The notes under the pieces are model-generated. The model saw only the letters and a list, made by a program, of their open reading frames with translations, searched no databases and was not told the DNA's origin. From an uncultured Candidatus Saccharibacteria bacterium (GTDB lineage: Bacteria; Patescibacteriota; JABMPQ01; JAQVVF01), in the NCBI GenBank assembly GCA_964574655.1, contig CAZNOH010000004.1:66046-130045 (forward strand): 64,000 nucleotides of DNA, written 5' to 3'. Position 1 is the first letter of the stretch, and every line of letters starts with the position of its first letter. Made by a program: the position numbers and the translations under genes. Of this stretch, positions 2,204 to 48,488 are shown piece by piece.

Positions 2204-2233
2204 TTCTTTATTAATTTAGATAAAATTTTAATC

Positions 2234-2266
2234 TACCTACGTCCCTCGGGACTCCGGTAGACAAGA
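2234..2266 (-). repeat. family-A GC-rich palindromic element (copy a)
   Basis: cttgtctaccggagtcccgagggacgtaggtag read on the minus strand; shares the ttgtcc.ccggag...gacgaagg core with seven other copies. Confidence 0.6.
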
Positions 2267-8209: not shown

Positions 8210-8833
8210 TTGTATTTAAAGCTAAAAATGGCAGAAAAAAATAAAGAATTATCATGGGAAAGAGTGGAAAAATATCTGGCTGAAAAAACTGATACTGGAA
8301 ATATGATGGCACTGATTGAAACAGAAAAGCTTTTTAAAGATGCAGTAGCTGATTTTGATTTACCAGGCGATGACTTAGAAAGGCAGATAACTGCTCTAAG
8401 CTTTGTTTTTACAGATATAAGCGATTTGCATAAAACAAGATCTTTATGCAAAAAAATAACTGAAAAAACAAATTTTTCGCTGACAAAGATTGAAACAATT
8501 CGTAATCTAGAAATTTATTATCAAGCAATATCGGATCTAAAAGATTTTAGAAAGAAAAAAATATCTTCGTTCAAAAAAATAAAGATGTACTTACAAACTT
8601 TCTTGCCACAGCCAAAGATTTTTATTAGAAAATTCGTTTTAATTTTTTTGATCTTTTTTCTAGCCATTTTTTTATTAGATGCAACAAGCTTCGGAAGAAT
8701 GGTTGTTGATCTTTTTGTCTCGTTATCTCATTTAATTTTCAGCTGGGTATTATTTATTATTCTATTAATTGCTGGCATTGCAATATTAGTTGTTGGAACT
8801 ATATATTATTTTCAAGGCAGGAGAAATCACTAA
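8210..8833 (+). CDS. hypothetical protein with C-terminal TM helices
   Basis: ORF of 207 aa; a likely alternative start is the ATG at 8228 (MAEKNK...); two or three C-terminal hydrophobic helices. Confidence 0.4.
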   Translation: MYLKLKMAEKNKELSWERVEKYLAEKTDTGNMMALIETEKLFKDAVADFDLPGDDLERQITALSFVFTDISDLHKTRSLCKKITEKTNFSLTKIETIRNLEIYYQAISDLKDFRKKKISSFKKIKMYLQTFLPQPKIFIRKFVLIFLIFFLAIFLLDATSFGRMVVDLFVSLSHLIFSWVLFIILLIAGIAILVVGTIYYFQGRRNH

Positions 8834-8834
8834 T

Positions 8835-9236
8835 ATGCACAAATTTCCCACAAATTCCACAAACATGGATAGAGTTCTCTTCCCTCAATTAAGTTACCAA
8901 ATTATGGGGATTTTATTTGAAATAAATAGTAAATTGGGGACTAAATACAAAGAAATAAATTATGGCAATGCTTTAGAAATCAAATTAAAACATCTTAAAA
9001 TTCCGTACGAAAGGGAGAAGCCAGTTAAGGTTTATTTTGAAAACGAAAAGTTAGGTGATTTCTATTTAGACTTTGTAATAAATAATCAAATAATCGTTGA
9101 GTTAAAAAAAGTTTGGTCAATATCTTTTGATGATATTAAACAAGTCCTGCGTTATTTAGAAGCAACAAATTTAAAGTTAGCAATAATAGCAAATTTTAAA
9201 CACAAAAGTTTACAATACAGAAGAGTTTCGCGATAA
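8835..9236 (+). CDS. GxxExxY family protein (PD-(D/E)xK fold)
   Basis: The ATG at 8835 gives a protein of about 133 aa with the family signature (NYGNALEIKL...VELKKV); lies immediately upstream of dnaE. Confidence 0.7.
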   Translation: MHKFPTNSTNMDRVLFPQLSYQIMGILFEINSKLGTKYKEINYGNALEIKLKHLKIPYEREKPVKVYFENEKLGDFYLDFVINNQIIVELKKVWSISFDDIKQVLRYLEATNLKLAIIANFKHKSLQYRRVSR

Positions 9237-14343: not shown

Positions 14344-14365
14344 TATCGAACCAAGAGATCAACCA

Positions 14366-14400
14366 AGAGGTCCGACCTCCAGCTAGGAGGTCGGACCTCT
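14366..14400. terminator. GC-rich perfect hairpin between convergent genes (bidirectional terminator candidate)
   Basis: agaggtccgacctcc-agcta-ggaggtcggacctct is a perfect 15-bp stem, sitting between the + gene ending 14343 and the - gene ending 14451. Confidence 0.55.
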
Positions 14401-14450
14401 ATGAAAACAAAAAAACCTAAAATTTTATTTTTAGGTTTTTATATTTTTAA

Positions 14451-24794: not shown

Positions 24795-26630
24795 CTATTT
24801 TTCCATTGATTTGAGTTTTTTCTTTGCTCGGAAAAGATGAATTTGATTTATGATTGTATTAAAGAAGATAGTTAACGCAAAAAATGTAAGCCAGATACTG
24901 ATATTTAAATTTAAGACATTAACTAACAATTTGGCTATTAGCATCGAGAAACAAATGTCATTAAAAAGAATAATAAATGAAGTGCTTTTCTTTATTTTTA
25001 ATAAATTTGTACAATAATTTATTATTTTAGTGCAATTTGTTATTGCATTTAAATAACCGACGCTTACAATCCAGAACAAGAGAGGTACCACAACAAAATA
25101 GTTGCTCCAATTTTGCCAAATAATAACTTGCGTTCCAACAAGACATGCTAACACAATAATTGCAGTAATCAGATTGGCAAACAGCGCCAAGTGAATATTT
25201 TGCTGAGGAAATCTTACTTCATCCGCTTTCTTTTTCATGGATTCGGGAATTACTGGTTCTTCGTATTTATATTCTAAGGGAGTAAAGGAAAATGGTTCTA
25301 ATTTAAATTCTACTTCAGAAACTTTTTCAGCTGATTTTTCGCTTTTGCGCTTTTGCCATGTTTTTCGCCACAAGGCTTTCGTACTATCCTTAATTGGTCC
25401 AAACAATCTTTGTCGCAAACTAAAAGCTTTTCTGAAAGCACCATTGAACGCGCCGAAGAGGCTTACTGGTCCATGCTTTTGAAGAGATTCTCTATAATTG
25501 CTACAATATTGCTTGAAAGCGTCTTGACACAGAGGATCATCGCAAAATGTAAAAAATTCATAGATATCAAGAAATCCTGTTGGAATCATCACCGAATCCT
25601 TATCGGTTTGATTGCCACAGAATTTGCAATGTCCGTCTTCATCCTGGACTGTCAATTTTCCTTCTTTTATCTCAATGAATGGGAATTGAAATTCCCCTCC
25701 CGCGAGTGAACGATTCAATACAGCCACTCGATCTTTCAGCTCTTGGACTTTTGCCTGACTTTCTTCAATATTGCCTGACGCTAGGTTTCGACTAGCTTCT
25801 GCATATAGTTTGGCTGCCCAAAGCAATGGGTCGTCTGTTTTTTGATCTGGTAACAAAAAAATTGGAGGATCATCGATGTCTTTTCCTTCCTGCCAGCTTT
25901 TGTTTAACAATACCTTGTAAGAAAACTTGTGGGAACCAATTTCATAATTCACGCGTACTCTCGGAAATCGACATGCCAAATTTTCGGCCAAATCCCAAGC
26001 AATACTTCCAATGCTTTTGTCAACAAAAGTAATTTCTAAAGCTTCACGCATTAATTCAATTCTGATTACAACTTCTTGGAATTGCAAATGGAACTCTCCA
26101 ATCATATCAGGCGGAGTACGGAATCTGAGAGATTGCAAATTAGGAAGCTCACAATACAATTGTTTTGGTTCATCGCCTCGTTTATCTGCAATCCGCGCTA
26201 ACATACCACTTCGATACGAAGGTTTGCGCAAAAGCTGGAATATTGCGTTTTCAGGCAAATTAATGACATGGCTAACGACAGCCTTTGCCCACTTTTGCAA
26301 CCAAGACCAATTTTGAAAAGTCGCCAAATTCTTTCTTAATCCTCCACCGATATTACTGATGCAAATCGTTGGTTTTCCGTCAACAAGTTCCAAATCTAGT
26401 TGCGGAGAAATATTGTGCCTTTTGGGATGTTCCATGATTTGCTGATAAAAAACTTCCGGCAGAGTACACCAGGCATGATATTTGACTAATTCAGGCGCAC
26501 CTAACTGATCAATAAGTAGTTGCCAAATGCCGGCATAATCAGCACGGATATAATCTTGATTTCCTAGTCCTCTTGTCAAATCCCAAATCTGCTGTAAATT
26601 AAGTAATTCTCTTGCAATGTCAATTATCAT
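24795..26630 (-). CDS. hypothetical protein: soluble N-terminal domain, Cys-cluster and C-terminal 4-TM module
   Basis: 611 aa; CKFCGNQ...CDDPLCQDAFKQYC; four hydrophobic helices in the last 130 aa or so; G+C visibly elevated. Confidence 0.5.
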   Translation of the reverse strand: MIIDIARELLNLQQIWDLTRGLGNQDYIRADYAGIWQLLIDQLGAPELVKYHAWCTLPEVFYQQIMEHPKRHNISPQLDLELVDGKPTICISNIGGGLRKNLATFQNWSWLQKWAKAVVSHVINLPENAIFQLLRKPSYRSGMLARIADKRGDEPKQLYCELPNLQSLRFRTPPDMIGEFHLQFQEVVIRIELMREALEITFVDKSIGSIAWDLAENLACRFPRVRVNYEIGSHKFSYKVLLNKSWQEGKDIDDPPIFLLPDQKTDDPLLWAAKLYAEASRNLASGNIEESQAKVQELKDRVAVLNRSLAGGEFQFPFIEIKEGKLTVQDEDGHCKFCGNQTDKDSVMIPTGFLDIYEFFTFCDDPLCQDAFKQYCSNYRESLQKHGPVSLFGAFNGAFRKAFSLRQRLFGPIKDSTKALWRKTWQKRKSEKSAEKVSEVEFKLEPFSFTPLEYKYEEPVIPESMKKKADEVRFPQQNIHLALFANLITAIIVLACLVGTQVIIWQNWSNYFVVVPLLFWIVSVGYLNAITNCTKIINYCTNLLKIKKSTSFIILFNDICFSMLIAKLLVNVLNLNISIWLTFFALTIFFNTIINQIHLFRAKKKLKSMEK

Positions 26631-26893
26631 CTTGTCCTCCTCTTTCCTGTTATTGCAGGAACAAATTTTGAAAGTACAATCTGGATACTATAATCTTTTT
26701 ATTTCTTTCTGTCAATCATTTTCTTTACAAATAATGTTTTTTTGATATACTTAAAATGAAAAAGAAACTCAATTTTAGACAAAACTGAGTTTTAAAAATC
26801 ATTAAGCCAATTTTATAATATCTATATTATCTAAATACGAAAAGCTTTTTGACACGCCTACGAAAAAGAAGGCTTGGTTAGATTTGAGAAGAG

Positions 26894-27286: not shown

Positions 27287-28693
27287 TTACTTCCACATTC
27301 CAAGATGTAATTTTTGAGCCCTGCGTTGGGCTTTTTTAAATACGGATCGATATTTAACATTTGGCTCGTAGGTATCAACTTTGGCTAAGCCTTTTTTAAC
27401 TAATATTTTGTTAACAAATTTTTTACCGACAAAAACATAAGCTAAATCTCTGCCAATATGATCTTCTCGATCAACATCGTATTCTAAAGTAATATTTTTA
27501 TTTTCGACTAATCTTTTATTCAAATTGATTGCTTGTTCATAATATCTTTTACCAACCTCTGGAGTGTTAACGCCGATATAGCGCATTTCTCTGCTGTCTG
27601 TCAGATAAACACTGTCGCCATCTTCTACATAAATAACTTTTTCTTGAGATTTATTATTGGCAAAAAAAGGAGCAACATCAATTCCCGAATCATAATTTTT
27701 AGGAAATGGATAAAAATTGATATTTATTGGAGCGCCTGATGCTTCAAAAAAACGAACTTGAGGAACGCCATGAGCTGTGCCAGTGATTACTTCATCGCGA
27801 CCATCTGAATCCAAATCAGCAAAATCTATTCTAGCGCCTACTTCGAAATTGCTATAAGCAAGCCATGATCCGATCAATGGAGTAGCATTTTTATATTTAT
27901 AAATCTTGCACCATGCTTGTTGTTGTGATTGGCAAGTCCCAATTTCATCAATGCCGTCTTTGTCTACGTCGCCAACTGCAACGTCAATTCCACCTAAAAA
28001 ATTTGGATTAAAAGCATAGAATTCTAATGGCAACATTCTGCCATCTGCTTCGTAAACACAAATTTTTGGAGAACATTTCGGTCCATTGCCGACTATTATT
28101 TCATCTTTATCGTCATGATCAATATTGCCAGATGCAACTGTTGCTCCACACTTATCATTGTCAAAGGCTTTAAATTCTTTTATAATTTCTTGTTTTTTAT
28201 TGAAACGATAAATTTTTACTTGCGCAATTCCGCCTTCAGCTGGCACTGTAATAATTTCGTCTTTCCCATCTCTATCGACATCACCTGTTGCAACATTGAC
28301 ACCAGTTTGTGAATTTGGATATGGATTTAAAATTGGCTTTTTTAATTTACCATTTTTTTCAAAAACTAAGACTTCTGAATTACCGCCAGCTCGCTGAGAA
28401 ATGATAATTTCATCGATTGCATCGCCATCAACATCACCTGTTGCGATGTTGATGCCTTTATTGTTCTTTGGCAATTGTTTTAAATTTGATAAATAACTAG
28501 CAATTTTTCCAGTATTGGAAAATTCTTTTATTTGCGGATTGACTCCAAATCCAGTACTGACCAAAATATTGAATGGAATTTTGGCAAAAGAAATTTTTGG
28601 TAAAAACAAAACTAAACCTAAAATTAAAATTATTTTGGTATAGATTAATTTGTTATTTAAAATTTTATTACTTAATAATTTTGCCTTCACCAT
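27287..28693 (-). CDS. secreted FG-GAP-repeat protein fused to a staphylococcal-nuclease (thermonuclease) domain
   Basis: Signal peptide; five or more TGDVDGDGxDEII FG-GAP repeats; C-terminal SNase-like block (IGVNTPE...GRDLAYV...LVKKGLA). Confidence 0.7.
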
Positions 28694-29192
28694 TAGGATT
28701 GTAATTGTTTTTTACTTCATCGCCATCGCTAAAACCATCACTATCTGTATCTTTTGTGTTTGGATTTGAATTATATTGCAACTCTTGAAGATTAGTTAAG
28801 CCATCTTCATCGTTATCTCTAATTGCATCAAGATAATCTTTGGGGTCTAAATTATTTTTTACTTCCCAACCATCCGGTATCTTATCAAAATCAGTATCAT
28901 ATTGATTTGGATCAGTACCATTTTTTAACTCTTCAATAGTTGTTAAGCCGTCGCCATCCATATCCTGATTAGAAATATCTGCTGTCAAATTAGCTTGTCT
29001 GTTTTTTTGGAAAAAATTATAGGCAATAATAACCGCAATAGACAAGATAATTATGAAAAATATAATTAGTAAAACAACAAGAATCGGATGTTTCTTGTTG
29101 TTTGTTTCCAGATATTGGAATTCTAGATTTGGTTTTTGATTTTTTGGAATATTGATAGGCGGTGCTGATTTGTGAAATCCAGAATTTTGCAT
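28668..29192 (-). CDS. membrane-anchored protein with TSP3-like Ca-binding repeats
   Basis: TM helix followed by DMDGDGLT...[12 protein letters not shown] repeats. Confidence 0.5.
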
Positions 29193-29201
29193 ACTATTTT
29201 A

Positions 29202-29239
29202 ATCCTCCTTCGTCCTACGGGACTCCGGAGGACAAAAAG
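29202..29239 (-). repeat. family-A element (copy b), supplying the SD for the gene starting at 29192
   Basis: Minus strand reads ttgtcctccggagtcccgtaggacgaaggaggat followed by taaaatagtATG. Confidence 0.65.
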
Positions 29240-29298
29240 TTTTCTAATTTTGATGCTATTCGAAATTAATTATGTACTTCGGATATTAATTTTTTTCT

Positions 29299-31098: not shown

Positions 31099-32445
31099 AT
31101 GAAAAATAAATTTTTTATTAAAACATTCGGCTGTCAGATGAATATTTCTGATTCTGAAAGAATTGAGGCTGTTTTGTTGAATGCTAAATTTAAGAAAGTA
31201 GATTCTGAAAATTTGGCTGATTTTGTAATTGTAAATTCTTGTTCTGTAAGGCAAGCTGCTGAAAATAGAGCGATTTCGACATTAAAAAATGCAAGAAAAA
31301 ATAAGCAAATTGCAATTGTCACTGGATGTTCTGCAGTAAAAGAAAAAAATAGATTCAAAAAATTTGCTGATTTTGTTTTGGATATTAAAGATTTGAAAAA
31401 ATGGCCAAGCATTCTACCTTGCCCCCACCTTCGTAAAAACTTCGGTGGGCAGGCATGGCAGGAGTCGCGACAAAAACGAACCTTTGCCATGGGCAAAGTA
31501 GAAACTAACTATTTCAAAATTCATCCAAATTATTCAAGTAAATTCCATGCTTATGTGCCGGTAATGACTGGTTGTAATAATTTTTGTTCTTATTGTGTAG
31601 TGCCTTATGCTCGCGGACGTGAAGTTAGCAGATCTGTAAATGAAATTATTAAAGAAGTAAAATCTCTTGTTAAACAAGGTTATAAAGGCGTAACTCTGCT
31701 TGGTCAGAATGTAAACAGTTACTGCGGTAAGGTAAAAGTCAAAAGTAAAAAGGAAAAAGCTGCAAGTAAAAAATCAAAAAACGATGTCGACTTTCCTACT
31801 CTTCTTAAAATGATTAATGACATTCCTGGCGATTTTTGGATTTGGTTTTTGACTAGCCATCCAAAAGACATGAGCTTGAAACTGATTAAAACGATAACAA
31901 AATGCAAGAAAGTCTGCCGTTATATTCATTTGCCTGCTCAAGCTGGAAATGATGAAATTTTGAAAAAAATGAATCGCAAATATACTCATGCAAAATATTT
32001 AAAGCTTGTTCAATCAATCAAAAAATATTTGCCTGATACTTGCCTTTCAACGGATATTATTGTTGGTTTTCCTTCTGAAACTAAAAAACAATTTCTTGAT
32101 ACCTGCAAACTTTTTAAAGAAGTGAAATATGATATGGCTTTTTTAGCTAAATACTCGCCTAGACCTGGAACAGTATCATTTAAAATGAAAGATGATGTTT
32201 TGCAAGACGAAAAGAAAAGACGTGAAAATTTCTTGAATAATATTTTGAGAAAAACAGCCTTAAAAAATAATAATAAATATTTAGGAAAAAATGTTGAAAT
32301 ATTAGTTGAGAAAAAAAATATTGGCAGAACTAGAACTTTTAAATTAGTTAAATTTAATTTTGATAAAGATTTGATTGGACAGATTGTTAAAGTGAAAATT
32401 ACGAAAGCTTTAGCTTGGATTTTGGAAGGAGAAATAAAAAACTAG
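31099..32445 (+). CDS. miaB: radical-SAM methylthiotransferase, MiaB-like, with an in-frame repeat-element insertion
   Basis: MTTase N-terminal domain (FIKTFGCQMN), CxxxCxxC (GCNNFCSYC) and a C-terminal TRAM domain; adjacent to miaA. Confidence 0.8.
   Translation: MKNKFFIKTFGCQMNISDSERIEAVLLNAKFKKVDSENLADFVIVNSCSVRQAAENRAISTLKNARKNKQIAIVTGCSAVKEKNRFKKFADFVLDIKDLKKWPSILPCPHLRKNFGGQAWQESRQKRTFAMGKVETNYFKIHPNYSSKFHAYVPVMTGCNNFCSYCVVPYARGREVSRSVNEIIKEVKSLVKQGYKGVTLLGQNVNSYCGKVKVKSKKEKAASKKSKNDVDFPTLLKMINDIPGDFWIWFLTSHPKDMSLKLIKTITKCKKVCRYIHLPAQAGNDEILKKMNRKYTHAKYLKLVQSIKKYLPDTCLSTDIIVGFPSETKKQFLDTCKLFKEVKYDMAFLAKYSPRPGTVSFKMKDDVLQDEKKRRENFLNNILRKTALKNNNKYLGKNVEILVEKKNIGRTRTFKLVKFNFDKDLIGQIVKVKITKALAWILEGEIKN
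31414..31508 (+). repeat. family-B two-hairpin element, in-frame inside miaB
   Basis: ctaccttgccc...cccacc/ggtggg hairpin...ctttgccatgggcaaagtagaaactaa; encodes LPCPHLRKNFGGQAWQESRQKRTFAMGKVETN. Confidence 0.7.
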
Positions 32446-33062: not shown

Positions 33063-33968
33063 ATGTCAAATAATTTACCTAAAGTTATAGTCATTCTTGG
33101 TCCGACTGCCTCTGGCAAGTCTGGTTTTAGTATTAAATTGGCTAAAAAATATAATGGTGAAATTATATCTTGTGATTCAAGACAGTTTTATAAAGAAATG
33201 AATGTTGGCACTGCCAAAGTGACCAAAAAGGAAATGCAAGGTGTGAAGCATTACATGATTGATATAATTAAGCCTAATCAAAATTTTTCAGTTGCTAAAT
33301 TTAAAAAACAGGCTGAAAAAATAATTAATGATATTTTAAAGCGAAAAAAAATTCCGATTTTGGTTGGCGGAACAGGATTATATATTCAATCTTTAGTTGA
33401 TAATTTAACTATTCCTCAAGTTCCTCCAGATTTTGAATTAAGGAAAAAACTTGAGAAACAAGATATTGAAAAGTTATGGGCAAGATTAATTAAATTTGAT
33501 CCTAAATCCGCTAATTTTGTGCAAAGACAGAATAAAAGAAGAATCATTAGGGCTTTAGAGGTTTGCCAGAAAACAGATAAAACTTTTTCAGGATTTCAAC
33601 AAAAAGGCAAACCGAAATATACTTTTTTGCAGATTGGTATTAAAGTAGATCGCGAAAAACTTTATGCAAGAATTGATAAAAGAGTTGATCAAATGATTGA
33701 TGATGGATTGATTCCAGAAATTAGAAAATTAAATAAAAAGTATTCATGGAAATTACCAGCAATGTCCGGAATTGGCTATGGTGAATTTAAGGGAAAACTA
33801 AATAAAATCAAAGATAAAAAAATTCTGGCAGAAATTGTCCAGAATATTAAATTTCATACTCATCAATACGCCAGACGGCAGGAAAGTTGGTTTAAAAGAG
33901 ATGAAAAAATAAAGTGGATTAAAAAATATAGCCAGGCAGACGAATTGGCGAGAAAATTTGTAAAGTAG
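33063..33968 (+). CDS. miaA: tRNA dimethylallyltransferase
   Basis: P-loop GPTASGKS, SCDSRQFYKEMNVGTAK. Confidence 0.9.
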   Translation: MSNNLPKVIVILGPTASGKSGFSIKLAKKYNGEIISCDSRQFYKEMNVGTAKVTKKEMQGVKHYMIDIIKPNQNFSVAKFKKQAEKIINDILKRKKIPILVGGTGLYIQSLVDNLTIPQVPPDFELRKKLEKQDIEKLWARLIKFDPKSANFVQRQNKRRIIRALEVCQKTDKTFSGFQQKGKPKYTFLQIGIKVDREKLYARIDKRVDQMIDDGLIPEIRKLNKKYSWKLPAMSGIGYGEFKGKLNKIKDKKILAEIVQNIKFHTHQYARRQESWFKRDEKIKWIKKYSQADELARKFVK

Positions 33969-33970
33969 TT

Positions 33971-34054
33971 CTACCTTGCCCACCTGCCTACCAGCAGGTA
34001 GGTGGCAAAGGTCAGCAAATTAGTAACCTCTGCCATGGGCAGAGTAGAAGCTAA
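33971..34054 (+). repeat. family-B element, intergenic, 3 nt after the miaA stop
   Basis: ctaccttgcccacctgcctaccagcaggtaggtggc...ctctgccatgggcagagtagaagctaa; the second hairpin carries compensatory changes relative to the copy in miaB. Confidence 0.7.
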
Positions 34055-35115: not shown

Positions 35116-35131
35116 CCTCTTTTCCTCCATT

Positions 35132-35162
35132 GATCGCCGAAGCTCTTTGAGCGAAGGCGATC
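35132..35162 (-). repeat. family-A-like divergent element (copy h) in the 5' leader of 34102..35115
   Basis: gatcgccgaagctctttgagcgaaggcgatc is a perfect hairpin; resembles copy f (ccgccgaagctttgagc). Confidence 0.45.
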
Positions 35163-35344
35163 TTGTTGCAAGGTGCAAGTATCAAAAAATCCGCTAGATA
35201 GCGGATTTAAAAGGGATTAAAATAATCCTCCGAAATAGAAATAGTTGAAGCGAATTTTTCTGTTCATTGTTTGCATACACATTATTCAAAGCATAACAGG
35301 TTTTTATTATCAAGTCAACCTTCATCAAAATTTCGGCTGATAAA

Positions 35345-36841
35345 TCATACAAGCTTTTTTTGCAGAATTTCAATGACTACTTTTGGATTTGCCTTGCCTT
35401 TTGTTTCTTTCATGATTAGGCCGATAAAAAACTGCAAGGCGTTTTTATTGCCAGCTTTAAAATCAGCAACTGGCTTTGGATTTTCAGAAATAAGCTTATC
35501 TAAAATTTTATCTAATTCATTTTCATCGGATACTTGGCCTAGACTTTGCTCTTCAACAACTTGGGATGGATCTGAACTTTTATCAAACATTATTTTCAAA
35601 ACTTGCTGGCCAGTGGCTGAAGAAATTTTGTTTGTATAAATCATAGCACAAAGTTCAGCAAAATTTTCTGGCGTTATTTTACAATTTGAAATTGAAATTT
35701 TTTCTGAATTTAATAAGGCAAACAATTTTGACGTCAGCCAATTAGAAACTAATTTTACGATTTCTTTATAATTTTTTTCTGTGATATCAGGAGCTTGCTT
35801 TAGCTCGTCAACCCATGATCTAGTTTCAGTTAAAACATTTTCAAAATATTCTGAAATCAGCCTATTTGAAATAATCAATTGCGCCTCTTTTTTATTTAAA
35901 TTAAATTGCTTGATAAATCTTTCTTTTTTGGCTTGAGGAAGTTCAGGCAATCGCTGTCTTAAGTCGCTAACCCAGGCTTGATCTAGCTTTAATGGCGGTA
36001 AATCTGGCTCTGGGAAATAGCGATAATCATGAGATGCTTCTTTTGTTCTCATCTCTGCTGTTGTAGCATCATCATCATTCCATAATCTTGTAGTCGAATA
36101 TTTTGGCGGATTATTTTCCTGCCATAATTTTGTTTGGCGCTCAACTTCATATGTCAAAGCTTTTTCAACAGCTTTGAATGAATTCATATTCTTTAATTCT
36201 GTTTTTGCAGATAATTCTTTTGTCCCTTCAGGTCGCATAGAAATATTTGCATCGCAACGAAGATGGCCTTTTTCCATGTCAGCATCTGAGACGTTAATAT
36301 AACGGATTAAATTGCGAAGTTCTTGCAAAAATATTTTGGCTTCAAGAGGACTTCTAAAATCAGGCTTTGTTACAATTTCCATCAAAGGCGTGCTGGCTCG
36401 ATTATAATCAACAAGACTTGCACCTAAACTTTTTGAATGTGTTAATTTTCCAGCATCTTCTTCAAGATGAATCCTTTCTAAATTAATTCTCTTATTTTGT
36501 CCATTAACTAAAATATCAAAATATCCACCCATGCATATAGGCTCGTCATATTGTGAGATCTGATAATTTTTTGGCGAGTCAGGGTAAAAATAATTCTTGC
36601 GGTCAAATTTAGAATTTTCTGGAATTTTGCAATTCAAAGCAAGACCAGTCATAACTGTCCATTCAACTGCTTGGCGATTAATTACTGGCAAAGCTCCAGG
36701 ATGAGCCATACAAACAGGACAGACTAAAGAATTAGGTTGTTTGCCTTCTGCATTGTTGTCACATGAACAAAACATTTTGGACTTGGTTTTGAGCTGGACG
36801 TGGATTTCTAGACCAATTATTGTTTCTAATTTTTGTTGCAT
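35345..36841 (-). CDS. gatB: Asp/Glu-tRNA amidotransferase subunit B
   Basis: N-terminal GLEIHVQL...CPVCMAHPGALPV and a C-terminal GatB/YqeY domain. Confidence 0.9.
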   Translation of the reverse strand: MQQKLETIIGLEIHVQLKTKSKMFCSCDNNAEGKQPNSLVCPVCMAHPGALPVINRQAVEWTVMTGLALNCKIPENSKFDRKNYFYPDSPKNYQISQYDEPICMGGYFDILVNGQNKRINLERIHLEEDAGKLTHSKSLGASLVDYNRASTPLMEIVTKPDFRSPLEAKIFLQELRNLIRYINVSDADMEKGHLRCDANISMRPEGTKELSAKTELKNMNSFKAVEKALTYEVERQTKLWQENNPPKYSTTRLWNDDDATTAEMRTKEASHDYRYFPEPDLPPLKLDQAWVSDLRQRLPELPQAKKERFIKQFNLNKKEAQLIISNRLISEYFENVLTETRSWVDELKQAPDITEKNYKEIVKLVSNWLTSKLFALLNSEKISISNCKITPENFAELCAMIYTNKISSATGQQVLKIMFDKSSDPSQVVEEQSLGQVSDENELDKILDKLISENPKPVADFKAGNKNALQFFIGLIMKETKGKANPKVVIEILQKKLV

Positions 36842-39830: not shown

Positions 39831-40661
39831 TTAAACTTTAATTTTTATTCCAGGCCCCATAGTAGAGCAAATTGTAATGGTCTTAATAAAGTTGCCTTTT
39901 ACTTTTTCTGGTTTTAATTTTTTTAATTCTTCAATGAAAGTTGTTAAATTTTCAGCTAATTTTTTGGAATCAAATGTGGCTTTTCCAATCATCAGATGAA
40001 TAATGCCGTTAGCATCATTTTTGAAAGCTGTTTTTCCGCCCATCAATTCCTTGATTGTCTTTTCAGGAGTCGGACTAACTGTCTGATTTTTCGGAGTTGG
40101 CATCAAGCCTTTTGGACCAATAATTTTGGCAATCTGGCCTAATTTTGGCATCATTTTTGGCTCAGCGACAGCTATGTCAAAATCGCATTTTTTAGTTTCT
40201 TTGATTTGCTTAATCAATTCTTCACCGCCGACAATTTCAGCGCCTGCTTCTTTACAAGCTGCTTGATTTTGTTCTTCAACGAATGCGGCTATTCTAATTT
40301 TTCGGCCAGTTTCATTTGGAAATTTTACAGAGCCGCGAACCATTTGATCAGATTTGCCTAAATCAATTCCAAGTCGTGTATGGATTTCGATTGAACCATC
40401 AAATTTTGTTGTTGAAGTTTTCTTAGCTAATTCGATTGCTTCTGCGATAGAATATCTTTGACTTTTAATTTCTTTTTTTAATGCAGAATATCTCTTGCTT
40501 CTTTTGCGAGGTTGTCTTATTTTAGGTTTTTTAACTTTTTCTTTCTTTTCAGTTTTTTCAGCCTTCTGTTCCTTGTCTGTCTTTACTTTCTCTACAGTTT
40601 CTTTTTTTTCGTTCTTAACTTCGCTTGCTTTTTTCTCTTTAATTTCTTTTTCTTTTGCCAT
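39831..40661 (-). CDS. rplA: ribosomal protein L1 with a Lys-rich N-terminal extension
   Basis: Canonical L1 core (KRYSALK...GSIEIHTRLGIDLGKSDQMVRG...). Confidence 0.9.
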   Translation of the reverse strand: MAKEKEIKEKKASEVKNEKKETVEKVKTDKEQKAEKTEKKEKVKKPKIRQPRKRSKRYSALKKEIKSQRYSIAEAIELAKKTSTTKFDGSIEIHTRLGIDLGKSDQMVRGSVKFPNETGRKIRIAAFVEEQNQAACKEAGAEIVGGEELIKQIKETKKCDFDIAVAEPKMMPKLGQIAKIIGPKGLMPTPKNQTVSPTPEKTIKELMGGKTAFKNDANGIIHLMIGKATFDSKKLAENLTTFIEELKKLKPEKVKGNFIKTITICSTMGPGIKIKV

Positions 40662-40694: not shown

Positions 40695-40730
40695 ACTTGT
40701 CCGCCGAAGTCATCTGGACGAAGGCGGAGA
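40695..40730 (+). repeat. family-A element (copy d)
   Basis: cttgtccgccgaagtcatctggacgaaggcggagat. Confidence 0.65.
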
Positions 40731-40866
40731 TATAAAGATTAATTAATAAAACTTAAAGTGTGTGGTTTTAACGCTCGTTTAAGCTCCCACGATTATTATT
40801 TTAATGATATTAATAAGAATAAATCACGAAGCCAATTCCTGTAATAGCTTTTTGAAATAAGCTAAA

Positions 40867-41460
40867 CTATTTATCCGCCGGAGTTCTAGAGGACGAAGGC
40901 GGATTGATATTTAAAACAATTATCGTAATCGTATTAGTAAAAAGAAGAATAAATGCAACTATTGCTTCCAATGTTGCGAACAACTCAACCTGATTCAGCA
41001 ATGCGCCATAAGGTATCAGGTAAAAAACATTGAGCATAAATGGGAAATGACGCAATTTATATGATTCTACCACGCTTGATGAGAAAATCAAGAGCAAATT
41101 GAAGGCAATTAAAAGGGCTGCAATTTTGAAAGTGATTATATTGCCAAACGCTAAGGAAAGTGGCCAGCCTGCAGTTCTAAAAAACCTATCTAGAACTGTG
41201 TCATAATAGGTCCCAAATGGCGTGACTTTGCTTAATCGCCTTGCCATGGTGCCATCTAAATAATCAAAAAAATAATCACAAGCAATAAAAATTCCACCTA
41301 GAACTATTTGCCCATTATAAAAAAAATATAGCACTAAAATCTTAAAAAAAAGAGCGAAAAGGGTAAGCTTGTTTGGAGACAACCCCATTCGCTCTAAGAT
41401 TTTGTAGAACTTAAGCGGTAAAATATTGTCTGAATATTTTTTTATTTCCCTGATGAACAT
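40867..41460 (-). CDS. CDP-alcohol phosphatidyltransferase family protein
   Basis: DYFFDYLDGTMARRL...GTYYDTVLD matches the D(x)2DG(x)2AR...G(x)3D motif; the C-terminal 13 aa and the stop are encoded by a family-A element. Confidence 0.7.
   Translation of the reverse strand: MFIREIKKYSDNILPLKFYKILERMGLSPNKLTLFALFFKILVLYFFYNGQIVLGGIFIACDYFFDYLDGTMARRLSKVTPFGTYYDTVLDRFFRTAGWPLSLAFGNIITFKIAALLIAFNLLLIFSSSVVESYKLRHFPFMLNVFYLIPYGALLNQVELFATLEAIVAFILLFTNTITIIVLNINPPSSSRTPADK
40870..40908 (+). repeat. family-A element (copy e), overlapping the 3' end of the CDP-alcohol phosphatidyltransferase gene
   Basis: tttatccgccggagttctagaggacgaaggcggattgat; the minus strand encodes ...INPPSSSRTPADK*. Confidence 0.65.
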
Positions 41461-43409: not shown

Positions 43410-43450
43410 CTTGTCCTCCGGAGTTTCGCGGAGCGAAATGCAGGAGGATT
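43410..43450 (+). repeat. family-A element (copy c)
   Basis: cttgtcctccggagtttcgcggagcgaaatgcaggaggatt. Confidence 0.6.
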
Positions 43451-44862: not shown

Positions 44863-44884
44863 GAGACTAGGTCTCTTTTTTTAT
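44862..44884. terminator. bidirectional terminator hairpin between P4 and gyrB
   Basis: agagac-tag-gtctct followed by a T-run. Confidence 0.65.
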
Positions 44885-47800
44885 TATATATCAAGATTCT
44901 TTACACTCGTAGCATGTGTCTGAATGAATCTTTTTCTAGGCTCAACTTCATTGCCCATCAAGATATCAAAAGTCTCATCAGCCTTAGCCACGTCTTCAAC
45001 ATTAACTTTTAGCATGACTCTATTCTGAGGATCCATTGTTGTTTCCCAAAGCTGACTAGGGTTCATTTCTCCCAAACCTTTGTAGCGCTGAATATTAACA
45101 CCAGTCATTTTTTCCTCTTCAGCTACTTCATCCCCTTCTTTCAATTCCTTTATCGTAAATCCGGCTTTTTCAATTTTGCTTTTTTTTGTTTTCTTAGCAG
45201 GTAACTTTTCAATTTCTTTTAAGATTTTTACTTTTTCTTGGTCTGAATAAGCATAATTCACTTTTTTGCCTTTTTCTATTCTATACAATGGCGGTTGAGC
45301 AATATATAGATATCCTTTTTTAATTATTTCTTGATAATATCGGTAGAAGAAAGTTAATAGCAATGTTCTAATATGCGCGCCATCAACGTCAGCATCAGTC
45401 ATAATAATTATTCGATGATAACGCATTTTTTCAATTTCTTTTTCTTCACCGACTCCCATGCCCATAGCAATGATCAAAGCTTTGATTTCTTTTGAAGTCA
45501 ACATTTTGTCAATTCTGGCTCTTTCAACATTTAATATTTTACCGCGGAGAGGAAGAATGGCTTGGAAAGTTCTGTCTCGGCCTTGTTTGGCGCTATTATG
45601 TACAAAAATTCCAGAACTTAGGGCGAAATTGTGTGAATTTGGTACTTCAAAATCATAGACATCTATTTTTTTTGATATTTTTTTAATGCATTTGATCTTG
45701 TGGTTATAATTTTTTACAGCTTCGTAAAAATTTTCTTTTTTTCCTTCAAAAAAGCGTTTTACTAAAGTTGTTGCTTTCAATAAATTAGTATTTTTTTTCT
45801 CTAAAGAATTTCTTTCTTGATCATATGAATCAATACTACCGTTTTGTTCTAAGATTTTTTTAGCAAATTGCAAACTAGAATTTAGATAAGTCTGGCTATA
45901 AGCCTCTTTTCTTTTCTGGCGAAATTCTTTTGTCCATTGTTTTTTGGTTTCGTTTTTTCTCCAGCTTAAAAGCGCCTTATCAGACCATTCTGCTTCAGCT
46001 TTTTTAACTAAATGCAATTTCATTTCTGGATTATTTTCAAAATATTTTTTAGTTTTTTCTGATTGCTTCTGTCGATTTTCTTTTTTTGCCCAATATTCTT
46101 TCTGTTCTTTATCTAATCTTTGTAGAGTTTTTTTCTGATAGGCTTTGTTGCTATTATAAAATTCTAAATATTTTTCAGCCATGTATTCTTTATAATCAGA
46201 ATTTTTCCATTGTTTTTTAGCTCTTTGACTCAATAAATTTCCCATTTTTTTCATTGTTTGAGAAATTTTTTGGCGATAAGCTTGTGTTTTTTTTATTTTG
46301 TTGCATTTTTCAATCGTATCTTTTCGATGAAGAGTTGTGCTAGCAAAATCTTGATGAAGTTTTAAATGCTGATCTTTTGTCATGCGTACAATATTGTTGG
46401 GGTCGTTATTTAACTTGTTAAAATCGAAATGATGGCGATAATAATTTTCATTTTCTTCGTTATAAACATTATGTTCTAAATTATACTTATCAGCTAAACT
46501 GTGCGCAAAAATCCAGTGGTGATTTTTTGGATCAAAAATCATTTTGTAACCTTCAATAGTAATTCTACCTTTTCTTTGTGATAATTTATTTATAAAAGGC
46601 ATTAAACTCATATCAGATTTTAAATCTTGCGCTTTGATATATTTTCCATCACGCAACATAAATTTATGATCAGGAGTTGCAATTATTCCTTCATTGTTAT
46701 CTAAAATGATTTTTATAACTTGAGCATTTCTTTTAGTAATCCTCGGATTTAGAATTTTTTCAATGCCGATGCTATTGTTATTTTTGATAGTGTAGCAATA
46801 ATTTTGTTTATTTTGTTTCCATTCTTTAACTAATTCTTTTAAGCTCAAATCTCTCCCATCAGCTAAGGAAATTTTTGTATTTCCGTCAAAACATCCTCCA
46901 GCGGAGTCACCCTCGACAATATATAATTCTGATTCTTCTGGATTTTTTGATGAGCAATCAGCTAATTTTCCAGGCAGAGATAAACCATCCATAATACCTT
47001 TTCTGATGACAGTGTCTTTCGCTGCCTTAGCTGCCAATCTTGCTTTGCAAGCTAATAATGTTTTCGCCATGATTTGACGAGCATCTTGAGGGTGTTCTTC
47101 TAAAAATTGCGCAAAATATTCGGCAACAACTGAACTAACGATTGGTCTGATTTCTGAATTGCCCAATTTTGCTTTTGTTTGGCCTTCAAATTGAGGATTA
47201 GGAAGCTTTAAGGAGATAACAGCAGTTTGACCTTCACGAACATCATCGCCTGTTAAATTGTCTTCTTTTTCTTTAAGATAGCCATTTTTCCTAGCATAAT
47301 CGTTGATAACACGAGTTACGGAAGTTCTGAATCCCATTAAATGAGCCCCACCTTCTGGCGTGTAAATATTATTAGCAAAAGCCATTTCAATGCCATTGAT
47401 CTCTTGAGTATATTGCAAGGCGACTTCAACTAAAACATCGCCCTGTGCTTTTTCAACATAAAAAGGATTTTCATGAACAACTTTTTCACTGCGATTCAAA
47501 AATCTGACATAAGATAAAATTCCACCTTCAAAATAAAAAGTCAAAGCACGTGGAATTTTTGGCGCAAGTTCATGACCTGTTCTTTCATCAGATATGGAAA
47601 TTTTGACGCCTTTTGTTAAATAGGCTTGCTGACGCAAATGAGTAATGATTGTCTTCCAATCAAATTCTATTTTTGGAAAAATCTCTGGATCTGGCTCAAA
47701 AATAACCGAAGTGCCAGTGCCCTTAGCTTTTTTTTCTTTTATTACTTTTGTCGAAGTCTTGCCTCTTTTATATTCTTGGCTCCATAAGTAGCCATCTCTT

Positions 47801-48243
47801 TTCACTTCAACGCGAACGAGTATTGATAGAGCATTTACAACTGACACACCAACGCCATGCAAACCACCAGAAACTTTATATCCGCCATCGCCGAATTTTC
47901 CGCCTGCATGCAAAATTGTCATGACAGTCTCTAATGTCGATTTTTTAGTAGCTTTGTGAGTTTCTACCGGAATACCACGACCATCATCTGTAATTGTGAC
48001 TTTAGTGCCTTTATGCAAGGTAACATGAATATTTTTGCAATAGCCAGCCATTGCTTCATCAATAGAGTTGTCAACAACTTCCCAAATTAGATGATGAAGT
48101 CCTTCAATACTAGTACCGCCAATATACATGCCAGGACGTTTCCGAACTGGCTCAAGGCCTTTTAAAACTGTAATAGAAGAGGCTCCATATGACTCTGATG
48201 GGTTTTTTGAAATGTTCTTTTTATCTTTTTTCTTGATAGCCAT
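44884..48243 (-). CDS. gyrB: DNA gyrase subunit B containing an intein
   Basis: ATPase domain (GLHHLIWEVVDNSIDEA) and TOPRIM with ...LYIVEGDSAGG|C...VHN|SAKQGRDR... Confidence 0.9.
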   Translation of the reverse strand: MAIKKKDKKNISKNPSESYGASSITVLKGLEPVRKRPGMYIGGTSIEGLHHLIWEVVDNSIDEAMAGYCKNIHVTLHKGTKVTITDDGRGIPVETHKATKKSTLETVMTILHAGGKFGDGGYKVSGGLHGVGVSVVNALSILVRVEVKRDGYLWSQEYKRGKTSTKVIKEKKAKGTGTSVIFEPDPEIFPKIEFDWKTIITHLRQQAYLTKGVKISISDERTGHELAPKIPRALTFYFEGGILSYVRFLNRSEKVVHENPFYVEKAQGDVLVEVALQYTQEINGIEMAFANNIYTPEGGAHLMGFRTSVTRVINDYARKNGYLKEKEDNLTGDDVREGQTAVISLKLPNPQFEGQTKAKLGNSEIRPIVSSVVAEYFAQFLEEHPQDARQIMAKTLLACKARLAAKAAKDTVIRKGIMDGLSLPGKLADCSSKNPEESELYIVEGDSAGGCFDGNTKISLADGRDLSLKELVKEWKQNKQNYCYTIKNNNSIGIEKILNPRITKRNAQVIKIILDNNEGIIATPDHKFMLRDGKYIKAQDLKSDMSLMPFINKLSQRKGRITIEGYKMIFDPKNHHWIFAHSLADKYNLEHNVYNEENENYYRHHFDFNKLNNDPNNIVRMTKDQHLKLHQDFASTTLHRKDTIEKCNKIKKTQAYRQKISQTMKKMGNLLSQRAKKQWKNSDYKEYMAEKYLEFYNSNKAYQKKTLQRLDKEQKEYWAKKENRQKQSEKTKKYFENNPEMKLHLVKKAEAEWSDKALLSWRKNETKKQWTKEFRQKRKEAYSQTYLNSSLQFAKKILEQNGSIDSYDQERNSLEKKNTNLLKATTLVKRFFEGKKENFYEAVKNYNHKIKCIKKISKKIDVYDFEVPNSHNFALSSGIFVHNSAKQGRDRTFQAILPLRGKILNVERARIDKMLTSKEIKALIIAMGMGVGEEKEIEKMRYHRIIIMTDADVDGAHIRTLLLTFFYRYYQEIIKKGYLYIAQPPLYRIEKGKKVNYAYSDQEKVKILKEIEKLPAKKTKKSKIEKAGFTIKELKEGDEVAEEEKMTGVNIQRYKGLGEMNPSQLWETTMDPQNRVMLKVNVEDVAKADETFDILMGNEVEPRKRFIQTHATSVKNLDI
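45595..46893 (-). mobile_element. intein (about 433 aa) in GyrB with an HNH-like endonuclease region and a K/E-rich insert
   Basis: Inserted after EGDSAGG; Cys1 (CFDGNTKISLADG), block B, a terminal HN followed by +1 Ser; central H..H..N...H-rich segment. Confidence 0.8.
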
Positions 48244-48249
48244 AAATTT

Positions 48250-48293
48250 AATCCGCCATCGCTCTTCGCATGCTCAAAGCTTCGGCGGACAAG
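48250..48293 (-). repeat. family-A element (copy f), 6 nt upstream of the gyrB start
   Basis: Minus strand reads cttgtccgccgaagctttgagcatgcgaagagcgatggcggatt followed by aaatttATG. Confidence 0.65.
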
Positions 48294-48488
48294 AAGTTAA
48301 TTTATAATTAAAAGTCTATATTTTTCAAAAACAAAATAAAATTATACTCTGATTTGTATATATCAGTGCAAAAATAAGTGTTTTCTAAACAATATAATTA
48401 TAGCAAATATATTGCTTTTAGCAAGGTTGATTTTGGGGATATTTATTATTATCTTTTGGCTTGTTAAAGCAAAATTATCAAATATTGA

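Follow-up and report, generated by a model that had tools for sequence, protein, structure and literature searches.

By definition, a REP is a hairpin that carries a tetranucleotide at its 5' foot and often continues, via a 1–3 nt bulge, into a second stem; REPs have been described as species-specific and as co-evolving with their own RAYT (PMC6006769). Short forms of the RPEs have been classed as REPs with a CGTC tag (PMC3733652). The IS91 family inserts without target duplication, and CTTG, GTTC or CTCG tetranucleotides lie beside its subterminal palindromes (PMC13181058). The element analyzed here shares features with each of these systems. Classic RPE-1 copies are roughly 100–150 bp long and confined to Rickettsia, and IS605 inserts 3' of TTTAA. 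In the AT-rich mitochondrial genome of yeasts, GC clusters and byps are mobile elements that form short, GC-rich palindromes, and some of them lie inside protein-coding genes.

We analyzed a 64-kb stretch (the window) of an AT-rich Patescibacteria genome in which GC-rich hairpins are inserted between and inside genes. The strict pattern TCCGCC-N10-40-GGCGGA has 4 matches in the window, against 0.01 expected in shuffled sequence. A covariance model trained mainly on copies from other phyla detected eight copies (30.8–45.4 bits, E 1e-8 to 6e-14), two of which (at 43410 and 48252) were outside the training set. These are the same eight copies as in the original prediction, and all of them were confirmed in place. 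Outside these eight, all scores in the window were 22 bits or lower. The model added a ninth copy, copy i (E 4.5e-5), which comparison with relatives confirmed as a 30-nt insertion. The copies are given below in the order of their coordinates, together with a possible decayed copy that is weak and was excluded from the copy count.

Copy a, 2232–2265, minus strand: CTTG followed by TCTACC GGA GTCCC-GAG-GGGAC GTA GGTAGA, 35.8 bits; intergenic, 153 nt upstream of the gene at 2419–5304, with compensatory changes in the outer stem relative to TCCGCC/GGCGGA.
Copy b, 29203–29236, minus strand: TTTG followed by TCCTCC...GGAGGA, 42.5 bits; its end lies 10 nt from the ATG of the gene at 28668–29192.
Copy i, 31424–31453, minus strand: CCTG followed by CCCACC GAA G-TTTTTA-C GAA GGTGGG, 21.1 bits; inside miaB.
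Copy c, 35129–35161, plus strand: ATTG followed by ATCGCC GAA GCTC-TTT-GAGC GAA GGCGAT, 37.7 bits; 17 nt before the probable start of the gene annotated from 34102.
Possible decayed copy, 35309–35347, minus strand: TCAGCC GAA ATTTTGAT GAA GGTTGA, 15.1 bits, E 0.007.
Copy d, 40696–40728, plus strand: CTTG followed by TCCGCC GAA GTC-ATCTG-GAC GAA GGCGGA, 43.8 bits; a 33-nt insertion within the leader of rplA (39831–40661, minus strand).
Copy e, 40870–40903, plus strand: the degenerate tag TTTA followed by TCCGCC GGA GTTC-TAGA-GGAC GAA GGCGGA, 36 bits; at the 3' end of a phosphatidyltransferase gene.
Copy f, 43410–43448, plus strand: CTTG followed by TCCTCC GGA GTTTCGC-GGA-GCGAAAT GCA GGAGGA, 30.8 bits; a 39-nt insertion about 12–16 nt upstream of the secE start (43397).
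Copy g, 48252–48293, minus strand: CTTG followed by TCCGCC GAA, an inner stretch of 20 nt, and GAT GGCGGA, 34.8 bits; its end lies 8 nt from the ATG of the intein-containing gyrB (44884–48243, minus strand).
Copy h, 56888–56923, plus strand: CTTG followed by TCCGCC GTA GCTCC-AGCA-GGAGC GGA GGCGGA, 45.4 bits; inside a helicase-nuclease gene.

The copies occupy leaders, spacers and coding DNA at a density of 9–10 per 64 kb, 6 of them being intergenic. Relative to the genes, the strand on which the tag comes last is the one in the mRNA for 7 copies, and the opposite strand for 2. The 4.4 kb of new sequence obtained beyond the window contained no copies. Two letters of the original prediction had to be reassigned: the in-frame helicase copy, called “g” there, is the eighth (56888), and the copy preceding gyrB, called “f”, is the seventh (48252), the sixth (43410) being the one that precedes secE. 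The miaB copy, the 4-nt tag and the pan-bacterial range of the element were absent from that prediction.

The unit, 30–42 nt long, is an imperfect palindrome that bears a 4-nt tag at its 5' foot. A GC-rich basal stem of 6–7 bp is followed by a symmetric 3x3 internal loop, in which G-N-A faces G-A/N-A, an inner stem of 2–7 bp and a loop of 3–5 nt. The tag is mostly CTTG and less often CCTG, CTCG or TTTG; ATTG and the degenerate TTTA also occur in the window. This tag is an integral part of the unit: upstream of the 79 hairpins obtained by a scan in which no tag was imposed, the 4 nt were CTTG in 23, CCTG in 6 and CTCG in 4 cases, with about 0.3 expected for any one tetramer. GTAG is present in some copies, only inside the 5' internal loop. 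The basal stems of different copies are related by compensatory pairs (TCCGCC/GGCGGA, TCCTCC/GGAGGA, TCTACC/GGTAGA, ATCGCC/GGCGAT and CCCACC/GGTGGG). Over 69 sequences, 96.7% of the cells are paired, compared with 34–49% when the partners are slid, and both sides are altered in 7 of the 11 pairs. Compensatory stem changes of this kind could also be generated without selection, by hairpin-templated correction of quasi-palindromes. The dominant unit length is 30 nt, and the other lengths show a weak excess of 33 and 36 nt that derives in part from related Bradyrhizobium copies. At loci L165, L110, L155 and L160, a complete unit of tag and hairpin is nested within another unit, and the nested unit invariably follows the second of the three bases in the 5' internal loop. 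Searches with Rfam 15 returned only tRNAs at the gathering threshold for the window and ten other loci, and nothing relevant for the element alone at E values up to 10.

Comparison with syntenic relatives revealed discrete insertion blocks of 30, 33, 36 and 39 nt, and no target duplication of 2 nt or more was present in the filled and empty sites compared for copies h, d, f and i. Copy h is a block of 36 nt in GATCA(A/G)^GAAGAA, where the caret marks the insertion point, and the empty site in L001 is GATCAG^GAAGAA. The site of copy d is empty in L124, with a net length difference of 33 nt, and that of copy f, a 39-nt block, is empty in L001, where it reads TTTTTTAA^TAAAG. Copy i is a 30-nt block in CCTGCC^CGTGGC, for which DNA alignment gives the empty site CCTGCC^CGTGGCAG in L165. 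The genes flanking copy b almost abut in the relatives L165 and L166, in which this copy is missing, and copy g is missing upstream of gyrB in L001 and L002. The orthologue of copy c in L165 holds a second unit nested inside it, and the corresponding site in L166 is empty. The genome behind L002, L124 and L165 has about 6 copies in 43 kb, and the L001/L166 lineage has none in 36 kb of syntenic DNA. Copies h and c are shared by the window and the L002 lineage but missing from a lineage nested between the two. This distribution calls for seamless loss, or else for repeated insertions into the same bond.

Of the 7 sites in the window lineage for which there is an empty orthologue, 5 have TTTAA or TTTA on one side, the full TTTAA being present at 4. 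The preferred position in the window genome is after TTTAA, on the strand whose tag reads CAAG; this applies to about five sites and to this lineage only, and no common target sequence was found in the flanks outside it. The empty helicase allele gave no matches in an exact-match scan of a metagenome collection in which the presence of the species is not established, and no polymorphism between filled and empty sites was found within a species. We also considered whether copies b, e and g are parts of a longer composite element, an idea that was rejected since the similarity of their flanks ends about 12–15 nt past the tag. Local duplications suspected at the same three copies were not significant.

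Three copies lie in coding DNA. Copy h is an exact in-frame insert of 36 nt, encoding the 12 residues SASAPAGATADK, in a UvrD-helicase/PD-(D/E)XK nuclease gene (54548–57448, minus strand). The insert had been expected to be an addition to this gene, and the comparison bears this out: it has no counterpart in orthologues that are 83–84% identical, being missing from P0002, P0003, P0004 and P0006 and present in P0005. Copy i is an exact in-frame insert of 30 nt in miaB (31099–32445, plus strand), and the 10 residues that it encodes, HLRKNFGGQA, are missing from the 83%-identical orthologue P0129. Copy e provides the last ~12 residues (NPPSSSRTPADK) of a CDP-alcohol phosphatidyltransferase (40867–41460, minus strand). 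The C-terminus of this protein is INPPSSSRTPADK in the window and FNYNSGSLKKR in a 91%-identical orthologue, each followed by the stop codon, and the former 3' coding end persists as a downstream remnant at about 40745–40790. Copy e has truncated the phosphatidyltransferase ORF and replaced its C-terminus. The original prediction had assigned to copy e both the terminal codons and the stop; the former holds for about 12 codons, and the stop TAG (40867–40869) lies just outside the unit.

It had also been proposed that copies upstream of genes act as the SD. This is unsupported because the genome barely uses SD sites: an SD-like motif is present in only about 6 of 45 genes here. Moreover, GGCGGA is a poor SD and is paired within the stem, gyrB orthologues without the element carry no SD, and the copy in front of secE stops 16 nt short of the ATG. 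The 3' arm of copy b, AAGGAGGA, located 10 nt from the ATG, is a possible donated SD and the only plausible one. The effects on the host appear to be incidental: proteins gain linkers or, in one case, a different C-terminus, and 5' leaders gain stable hairpins. Units with a length divisible by three also enter coding DNA, where they are most simply translated as a tolerated short linker or a new C-terminus.

The tagged hairpin matched at least 120 genome stretches from many phyla; the host groups among the matches listed include Verrucomicrobiota, Planctomycetota, Bacteroidota, Acidobacteriota, Bradyrhizobium and Patescibacteria. In viral contigs, 37 stretches were matched, compared with 0 and 0 for two composition-matched controls with a broken palindrome. 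An identical 30-mer is present in Armatimonadetes, Bacteroidota, Roizmanbacteria and others, and elsewhere in-frame copies occur in AlaRS, LeuRS, TGT, UvrA, ATP synthase, a SpoU methylase and an ABC ATPase. Among isolates, the element is carried by Niastella populi, Flaviaesturariibacter aridisoli and a number of Bradyrhizobium species, in two cases on a complete chromosome. The viral contig L137 contains four inverted doublets that resemble REPINs; the window contains no doublets. No element was found in 5,426 E. coli genomes, and 72,556 plasmids and 50,697 phage records gave only chance-level partial matches. That the hairpin is present, almost unchanged, in phage contigs and in well over a dozen bacterial lineages of unrelated phyla sets it apart from most elements of this kind. 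The original prediction had considered that copies might be restricted to the window, or that orthologous genes might hold the same residues; copies occur far outside the window, and there are orthologues without the inserted residues. When the searchable literature was queried with the element sequence and its encoded peptides, no description was found, and only general REP papers were relevant.

These findings have to be weighed against readings in which the hairpin is not mobile DNA. We consider it unlikely that the hairpin functions as an RNA motif that selection maintains site by site, such as a tandem sheared G-A protein-binding hairpin, a leader or attenuator, or a 3'-end stabiliser. 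Stable RNA motifs typically have purine internal loops like those of the tag-first strand (GNA/GAA), the stem of this strand is lengthened by a G-U pair, RNA folding energies are -17 to -24 kcal/mol, several copies lie 8–40 nt upstream of start codons, and the conservation across phyla exceeds what is expected for selfish DNA. However, for 7 of the 9 window copies the transcript would contain the opposite strand, with pyrimidine loops, in-frame copies in unrelated proteins are read in three different frames, and the orthologous genes of close relatives manage without copies. Nested units, hairpins without a following U-tract and the lack of any Rfam match at E values up to 10 are also at odds with an RNA function. 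It is less probable still that the palindromes are immobile, having been formed and homogenised in place by template switching or hairpin-directed repair, with mutational bias causing convergence. Quasi-palindrome correction does perfect stems without selection, and extra AT-rich DNA lies beside copies b, e and g, but the local duplications suspected there are not significant. Genesis in place is already disfavoured by the 30-mer that recurs unchanged, asymmetric tag and loop included, in genomes of 33–70% GC from many phyla, by the clean blocks of 30, 33, 36 and 39 nt at otherwise conserved sites, and by whole units nested at one fixed bond.

Long host ORFs in AT-rich genomes mostly use one frame of the element, S-[AS]-F-A-K-A-T-[AE]-D-K, which raises the question of whether the conserved object is a peptide linker module (e.g., SAFAKATADK) and the DNA palindrome is secondary. 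Purifying selection on insertions is expected to produce such a frame bias among coding copies. Roughly half of the copies lie between genes, the three coding copies of the window are in three frames (SASAPAGATADK, NPPSSSRTPADK and the miaB decapeptide), the host proteins and insertion points are unrelated, and palindrome and tag are conserved even without an ORF. Given the intergenic copies, a peptide module is largely refuted, and we regard it as highly improbable. Most matches come from metagenome-assembled genomes, which, together with the results for E. coli, plasmids and phages, could point to an assembly, adapter or chimera artefact. Against this, the element is carried by isolate genomes, among them the two complete Bradyrhizobium chromosomes, its copies differ by compensatory changes, in-frame copies keep their reading frames, and the same copy recurs in assemblies of the L002 lineage that were made independently, L002 from JGI/NCBI and L003 from Logan. 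An artefact has almost no probability left and is refuted for practical purposes.

The element is very likely a discrete mobile DNA hairpin, and family A, as the copies in the window were called, is probably the local population of a REP-like, non-autonomous mobile DNA element with a very wide distribution. The near-identity of the 30-mer across phyla, which differs from the species-specific REPs, stands against the REP-like part of this reading. The MITE/REP-like behaviour suggested originally is upheld as far as mobility is concerned, by the filled and empty sites at h, d, f and i, and does not extend to a strict MITE. The unit inserts as a discrete block, leaving the target unduplicated, into AT-rich leaders and spacers. 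In the mechanism that we propose, it may travel as single-stranded DNA, with the folded hairpin and the tag being recognised by a trans-acting HUH-type nuclease; other extruded copies would be preferred targets, and seamless loss of the unit would be possible. Candidate enzymes would be a Y1 nuclease of the RAYT/IS200-IS605 kind or a Y2 nuclease of the IS91 kind. That such an HUH-type nuclease moves the unit is a tentative proposal. Pfam scans of the window ORFs detected no HUH, RAYT or other transposase gene. With an HMM of published RAYT/TIRYT sequences, 2.37 Mb of element-bearing DNA gave a single match, which neither lies next to the hairpin nor has it on its flanks, and all-against-all ORF clustering of about 160 element-bearing loci revealed no recurrent neighbour protein family. 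The fixed nesting bond and the conserved tag constitute a defined substrate with which to search for the enzyme.

If confirmed, the element would rank among the smallest mobile DNA units of bacteria and among the most widespread, and would conflict with the view of REPs as lineage-bound and co-evolving with a private transposase. For annotation, it matters that the element silently adds linkers of 10–12 residues or new termini to tRNA synthetases, UvrA, a UvrD-type helicase, MiaB, TGT and ATP synthase, and that it seeds spurious ORFs in GC-rich genomes. It may also serve as a marker of recent genome change, especially in Patescibacteria, where mobile elements are thought to be scarce.

Intrinsic (rho-independent) terminators were considered and rejected: no T-run follows the hairpins on either strand, and copies lie in coding DNA and upstream of starts. 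Lacking a U-tract, the hairpins are therefore not canonical intrinsic terminators. With the yeast GC clusters and byps, the element shares the condition of short, GC-rich mobile palindromes in an AT-rich genome, some of them in coding genes. However, byps are skipped by the ribosome and thus free of frame, whereas the coding copies of this element are 30 or 36 nt long, stop-free and most simply translated; in addition, the element is bacterial, and the sequences are unrelated. RPEs are likewise palindromic selfish DNA that is found in frame in housekeeping genes and translated, with no associated transposase known, but the element is 30–42 nt long, has another tag, sequence and range of hosts, and crosses phyla, so that only the in-frame behaviour is shared.

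As in IS200/IS605 and IS91/ISCR, a hairpin lies beside a tetranucleotide of the kind that serves as cleavage site or target, there is no target-site duplication, and seamless excision is possible. The TTTAA at 4 of the 7 element sites with a comparable empty orthologue is on the same side as in IS605. In contrast to HUH transposons, which have two distinct ends, the element is a single hairpin without coding capacity, and where IS200/IS605 members have a fixed target of 4–5 nt, it has no common flank sequence outside the window lineage. A MITE has TIRs around a body of 70–300 bp and a target-site duplication, unlike this single hairpin of 30–42 nt.

The closest likeness is to REPs and REPINs, which are 20–65 nt long and form a GC-rich hairpin that has a tetranucleotide at its 5' foot and a second stem past a short unpaired segment (PMC6006769, PMC3733652). 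The hairpin of this element is within that size range and has the GC-rich basal stem and the optional second stem, and its copies in the window are many, dispersed and mostly intergenic. High copy number is shared as well, as are the occurrence as single units, inverted doublets and clusters, and the presence, now and then, of in-frame copies in genes of repair and replication, for example uvrA, here UvrA, the UvrD-type helicase and others. The table of peptides from intragenic REPs in PMC3733652 contains no peptide of this element. The tag is CTTG, CCTG, CTCG or TTTG instead of the GT[AG]G or CGTC of REPs, and the sequence is near-constant across many phyla and phage contigs, unlike REPs, which are described as being restricted to a species or genus. 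A RAYT is flanked by its own REP, and no RAYT was found near the element in the window. A single sequence across lineages would imply either one horizontally spreading single-strand nuclease of fixed specificity or a universal host replication or repair activity. Somewhat more speculatively than the involvement of an HUH nuclease, the CTTG-tagged hairpin might represent a third, previously undescribed REP-like superfamily, with essentially one sequence across well over a dozen lineages and phages; if so, the enzyme would cut at the fixed position in the 5' internal loop where units nest.

Direct reading of the eight sites at which a GC-rich element had been predicted confirmed the described unit at all eight. 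The GC content of the window is ~33%, and the nearest homologues of its proteins come from 'Patescibacteria group bacterium' assemblies. In such AT-rich DNA, 30-nt stretches with ≥63% GC are rare and, tRNAs and a few coding runs aside, mostly palindromes. The strict pattern TCCGCC-N10-40-GGCGGA is present four times in the window, where 0.01 occurrences are expected. A covariance model trained on 69 sequences (62 from other organisms) recovered exactly the eight copies with scores of 30.8-45.4 bits, including two that were not in the training set; it also reported a ninth copy, at 31424-31453 with 21 bits, and, at 35309-35347, a weak relic.

All copies of this element, family A, share a common fold: a symmetric 3x3 internal loop separates an outer stem of 6-7 bp from an inner stem of 3-7 bp, which is capped by a loop of 3-5 nt. 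The folding energies are -17 to -24 kcal/mol as RNA and -5.7 to -12.1 kcal/mol as DNA (z-scores -1.4 to -4.1). The outer stem shows paired changes (TCCGCC/GGCGGA, TCCTCC/GGAGGA, TCTACC/GGTAGA and ATCGCC/GGCGAT), and the element has a polarity, reading on one strand C-T-T-G, stem, G-N-A, inner hairpin, G-A/N-A, stem. The CTTG tag lies outside the palindrome. In a scan that did not require a tag, CTTG was found directly upstream of 23 of 79 canonical hairpins, and most of the other recurrent upstream tetramers were CCTG, CTCG, TTTG and CGTG.

The boundaries of the unit were set by comparing filled and empty sites in syntenic relatives. Copy h, located in the helicase-nuclease gene, corresponds to exactly 36 extra nt (hairpin 32 plus tag 4) between GATCA(A/G) and GAAGAA. 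Upstream of rplA the length difference is 33 nt (29 + 4), upstream of secE 39 nt (35 + 4) are inserted into TTTTTTAA|TAAAG, and in miaB copy i adds 30 nt (26 + 4, tag CCTG) within CCTGCC|CGTGGC. At none of these four sites was a target duplication of ≥2 nt found. Seven sites have an empty orthologue; on the strand where the tag reads CAAG, four of them are preceded by TTTAA and a fifth by TTTA, the two intragenic ones by neither. As judged from these flanks, the bias suggests a target preference in the lineage of the window; no common flanking sequence was seen around copies in other phyla. At the position of the secE copy, the relative stretch L002 (23490-23740) has a palindromic element of another kind, ~110 nt long, whose AATC...ACAA ends are similar, and this site may be an insertion hot spot. 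Extra AT-rich DNA of 65-100 nt, lacking in relatives, lies on the tag side of copies b, e and g (29237-29298, 40745-40869 and 48294-48375); its similarity to the flanks is not significant.

Several copies contribute to proteins. Copy h adds SASAPAGATADK to a protein with UvrD-helicase and PD-(D/E)XK nuclease domains (Pfam). These residues are missing in the homologues P0002, P0003 and P0004 (83-84% identical) and P0006, and P0005 carries the insert as SASAPAGASADK. Copy i adds HLRKNFGGQA to MiaB, residues that are missing in the 83% identical homologue P0129. Copy e altered the C-terminus of the phosphatidyltransferase, which ends in ...INPPSSSRTPADK, versus ...FNYNSGSLKKR in the 91% identical P0121, and the old 3' coding end is still discernible downstream of the copy. 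The copy encodes the C-terminus, as had been proposed, but the stop codon, also attributed to it, lies just outside the unit. The three coding copies in the window are each read in a different frame, all on the same strand of the element.

The proposal that the element acts as a Shine-Dalgarno (SD) sequence does not hold up. An SD-like motif is present ≤22 nt from the start in only ~6 of 45 window genes, gyrB of relatives lacks both the element and an SD, GGCGGA is a weak SD match that is base-paired in the stem, and the distance between the secE copy and the ATG is too large. A possible exception is copy b, whose AAGGAGGA lies 10 nt from the ATG and may be a donated SD. Leaders in the window are A/T-rich and translation starts almost SD-less. 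Immediately before the ATG of 24795..26630 lies GAGGAGGACAAG (26631-26642, minus strand), and the 10-mer GGAGGACAAG preceding this start equals a family-A 3' arm plus tag; this 10-mer may be the relic of a half-copy and now provide one of the genome's very few strong SD sites.

The window also contains the following features:
1470-1826 (+): 23S rRNA intervening-sequence (Avd-like) protein
8790-9236 (+): PDDEXK_3 nuclease
14363-14401: hairpin CCAAGAGGTCCGACCTCC...GGAGGTCGGACCTCT between convergent genes
31405-31500 and 33973-34008: second palindromic family (CTACCTTGCC ... GGCAAAGTAG), also at 9300-9330 of relative stretch L165
35183-35205: hairpin AAATCCGCTAGATAGCGGATTT, kept in relative stretches L165 and L166
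44884-48243 (-): gyrB with an intein (PF14890), 1119 aa

The MiaB linker LPCP...WQESRQKRTFAMGKVE, which P0130 and P0131 lack and in which family-A copy i lies, is formed by one second-family copy; another such copy follows gene 33063..33968. A further insert family, translated PAGEIHESRL or GGEIHEFHLR, occurs elsewhere in the helicases P0004 and P0006 and in the MiaB protein P0130, which suggests additional small GC-rich elements in the clade. The gyrB orthologues of L001 and L002 (680 and 686 aa) have no intein; a helicase intein is present in the L002 lineage and missing in the window helicase. The two small genes belong to families that are often inserted passengers, and adjoin two large DUF4214 proteins. 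Both hairpins (14363-14401 and 35183-35205) look like ordinary terminator-type structures.

Copy density is uneven among relatives: 9-10 in the 64 kb of the window, ~6 in 43 kb of the genome of L002, L124 and L165, and zero in the 36 kb of mostly syntenic DNA from the L001/L166 lineage. By helicase identity, P0005 and (P0004, (P0002, P0003)) form a clade that excludes the window, and yet copies h and c are common to the window and the P0005 genome and missing in the P0002-P0004 group; either these copies were lost seamlessly or the same bond received a second insertion. Within the 5' internal loop of its copy-c orthologue, L165 carries another complete unit (CTTG + TCCACC...GGTGGA, 30 nt). A systematic search revealed nested units in four loci from unrelated sources (L165, the Kiritimatiellia stretch L110 and the two viral contigs L155 and L160); in every case the inner unit lies between bases 2 and 3 of the 5' G-N-A loop of the outer one. 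An enzyme acting on structured single-stranded DNA would be expected to target such a fixed bond in the unpaired loop of a hairpin.

The pattern TTGTCCKCCGNAG-N7-30-GNAGGMGGAT matched at least 120 stretches in the genome collection. Hosts among the matches listed are Verrucomicrobiota, Kiritimatiellia, Lentisphaerae, Planctomycetota, Bacteroidota, Acidobacteriota, Cloacimonadota, Ignavibacteria, Armatimonadetes, Bdellovibrionota, Spirochaetia, several Patescibacteria classes and Bradyrhizobium, with isolates including Niastella populi, Flaviaesturariibacter aridisoli and two complete Bradyrhizobium chromosomes. The commonest form among these matches is the 30-mer TTGTCCGCCG[A/T]AGC[C/T]TT[G/A]GCGAAGGCGGAT, whose inner part the pattern left free and in which the base before TTG is mostly C. 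In-frame copies occur elsewhere in AlaRS, LeuRS, ATP synthase alpha/beta subunit, TGT, UvrA, ABC ATPase, SpoU methylase and O-antigen ligase, the usual reading in long host ORFs of AT-rich genomes being S-[AS]-F-A-K-A-T-[AE]-D-K. In a Rikenellaceae metagenome-assembled genome (L020, 793-901), the element adjoins the 5' end of a tRNA gene with zero spacer (CAAG|GGGGAAT...). In viral contigs, 37 stretches match the pattern, and two control patterns of the same composition with a broken palindrome gave no matches. The six copies in viral contig L131 share one strand; L137, also viral, has four inverted doublets in which the outer stem is wholly changed (GGCTGC/GCAGCC) and the tag, GAA loops and inner GCCTTGGC are retained. 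The 5,426 E. coli genomes searched gave no match, and matches in the plasmid and phage record collections did not exceed chance, which may explain why the element escaped notice. Full-text searches for its sequence, translations and keywords, in incompletely covered literature, returned no prior description, and its peptides are missing from the intragenic-REP table of PMC3733652.

These are discrete units with a conserved tag-plus-hairpin, patchy among close relatives and present in phage contigs, and we consider it highly probable that the element is a mobile DNA hairpin. Its purine loops and degree of conservation would also fit a functional RNA, but that reading is unlikely given that both orientations occur, coding copies use three frames, orthologous sites lack the element and units nest. 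No Rfam family matches it. A canonical intrinsic terminator is ruled out by the lack of a U-run, and an RPE by host, size and tag. Of the MITE/REP-like behaviour in the original prediction, the discrete, mobile REP-like unit stands; a MITE in the strict sense does not, as the unit has no body framed by terminal repeats and makes no target duplication.

The mobile hairpin would move as folded single-stranded DNA, on which an HUH-type nuclease would act in trans. We infer this from published systems: REPs are defined by a hairpin that carries a guide tetranucleotide at its 5' foot and is often linked to a second stem via a short unpaired segment (PMC6006769); the E. coli RAYT requires the tag and unpaired loop-edge residues (PMC3733652); and IS91-family HUH transposons make no target duplication and have CTTG, GTTC or CTCG beside subterminal palindromes (PMC13181058). 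Such an enzyme was neither found in the window nor enriched near copies elsewhere and, unlike REP-RAYT pairs, the element is near-invariant across phyla; movement by an HUH enzyme is therefore only a tentative proposal, somewhat under an even chance. The element shares with the IS91 family the lack of target duplication and a CTTG/CTCG tetranucleotide by a palindrome, and with published REPs the tetranucleotide at the 5' foot of the hairpin. We conclude that it is REP-like, with a different tag and an unusual constancy across phyla.
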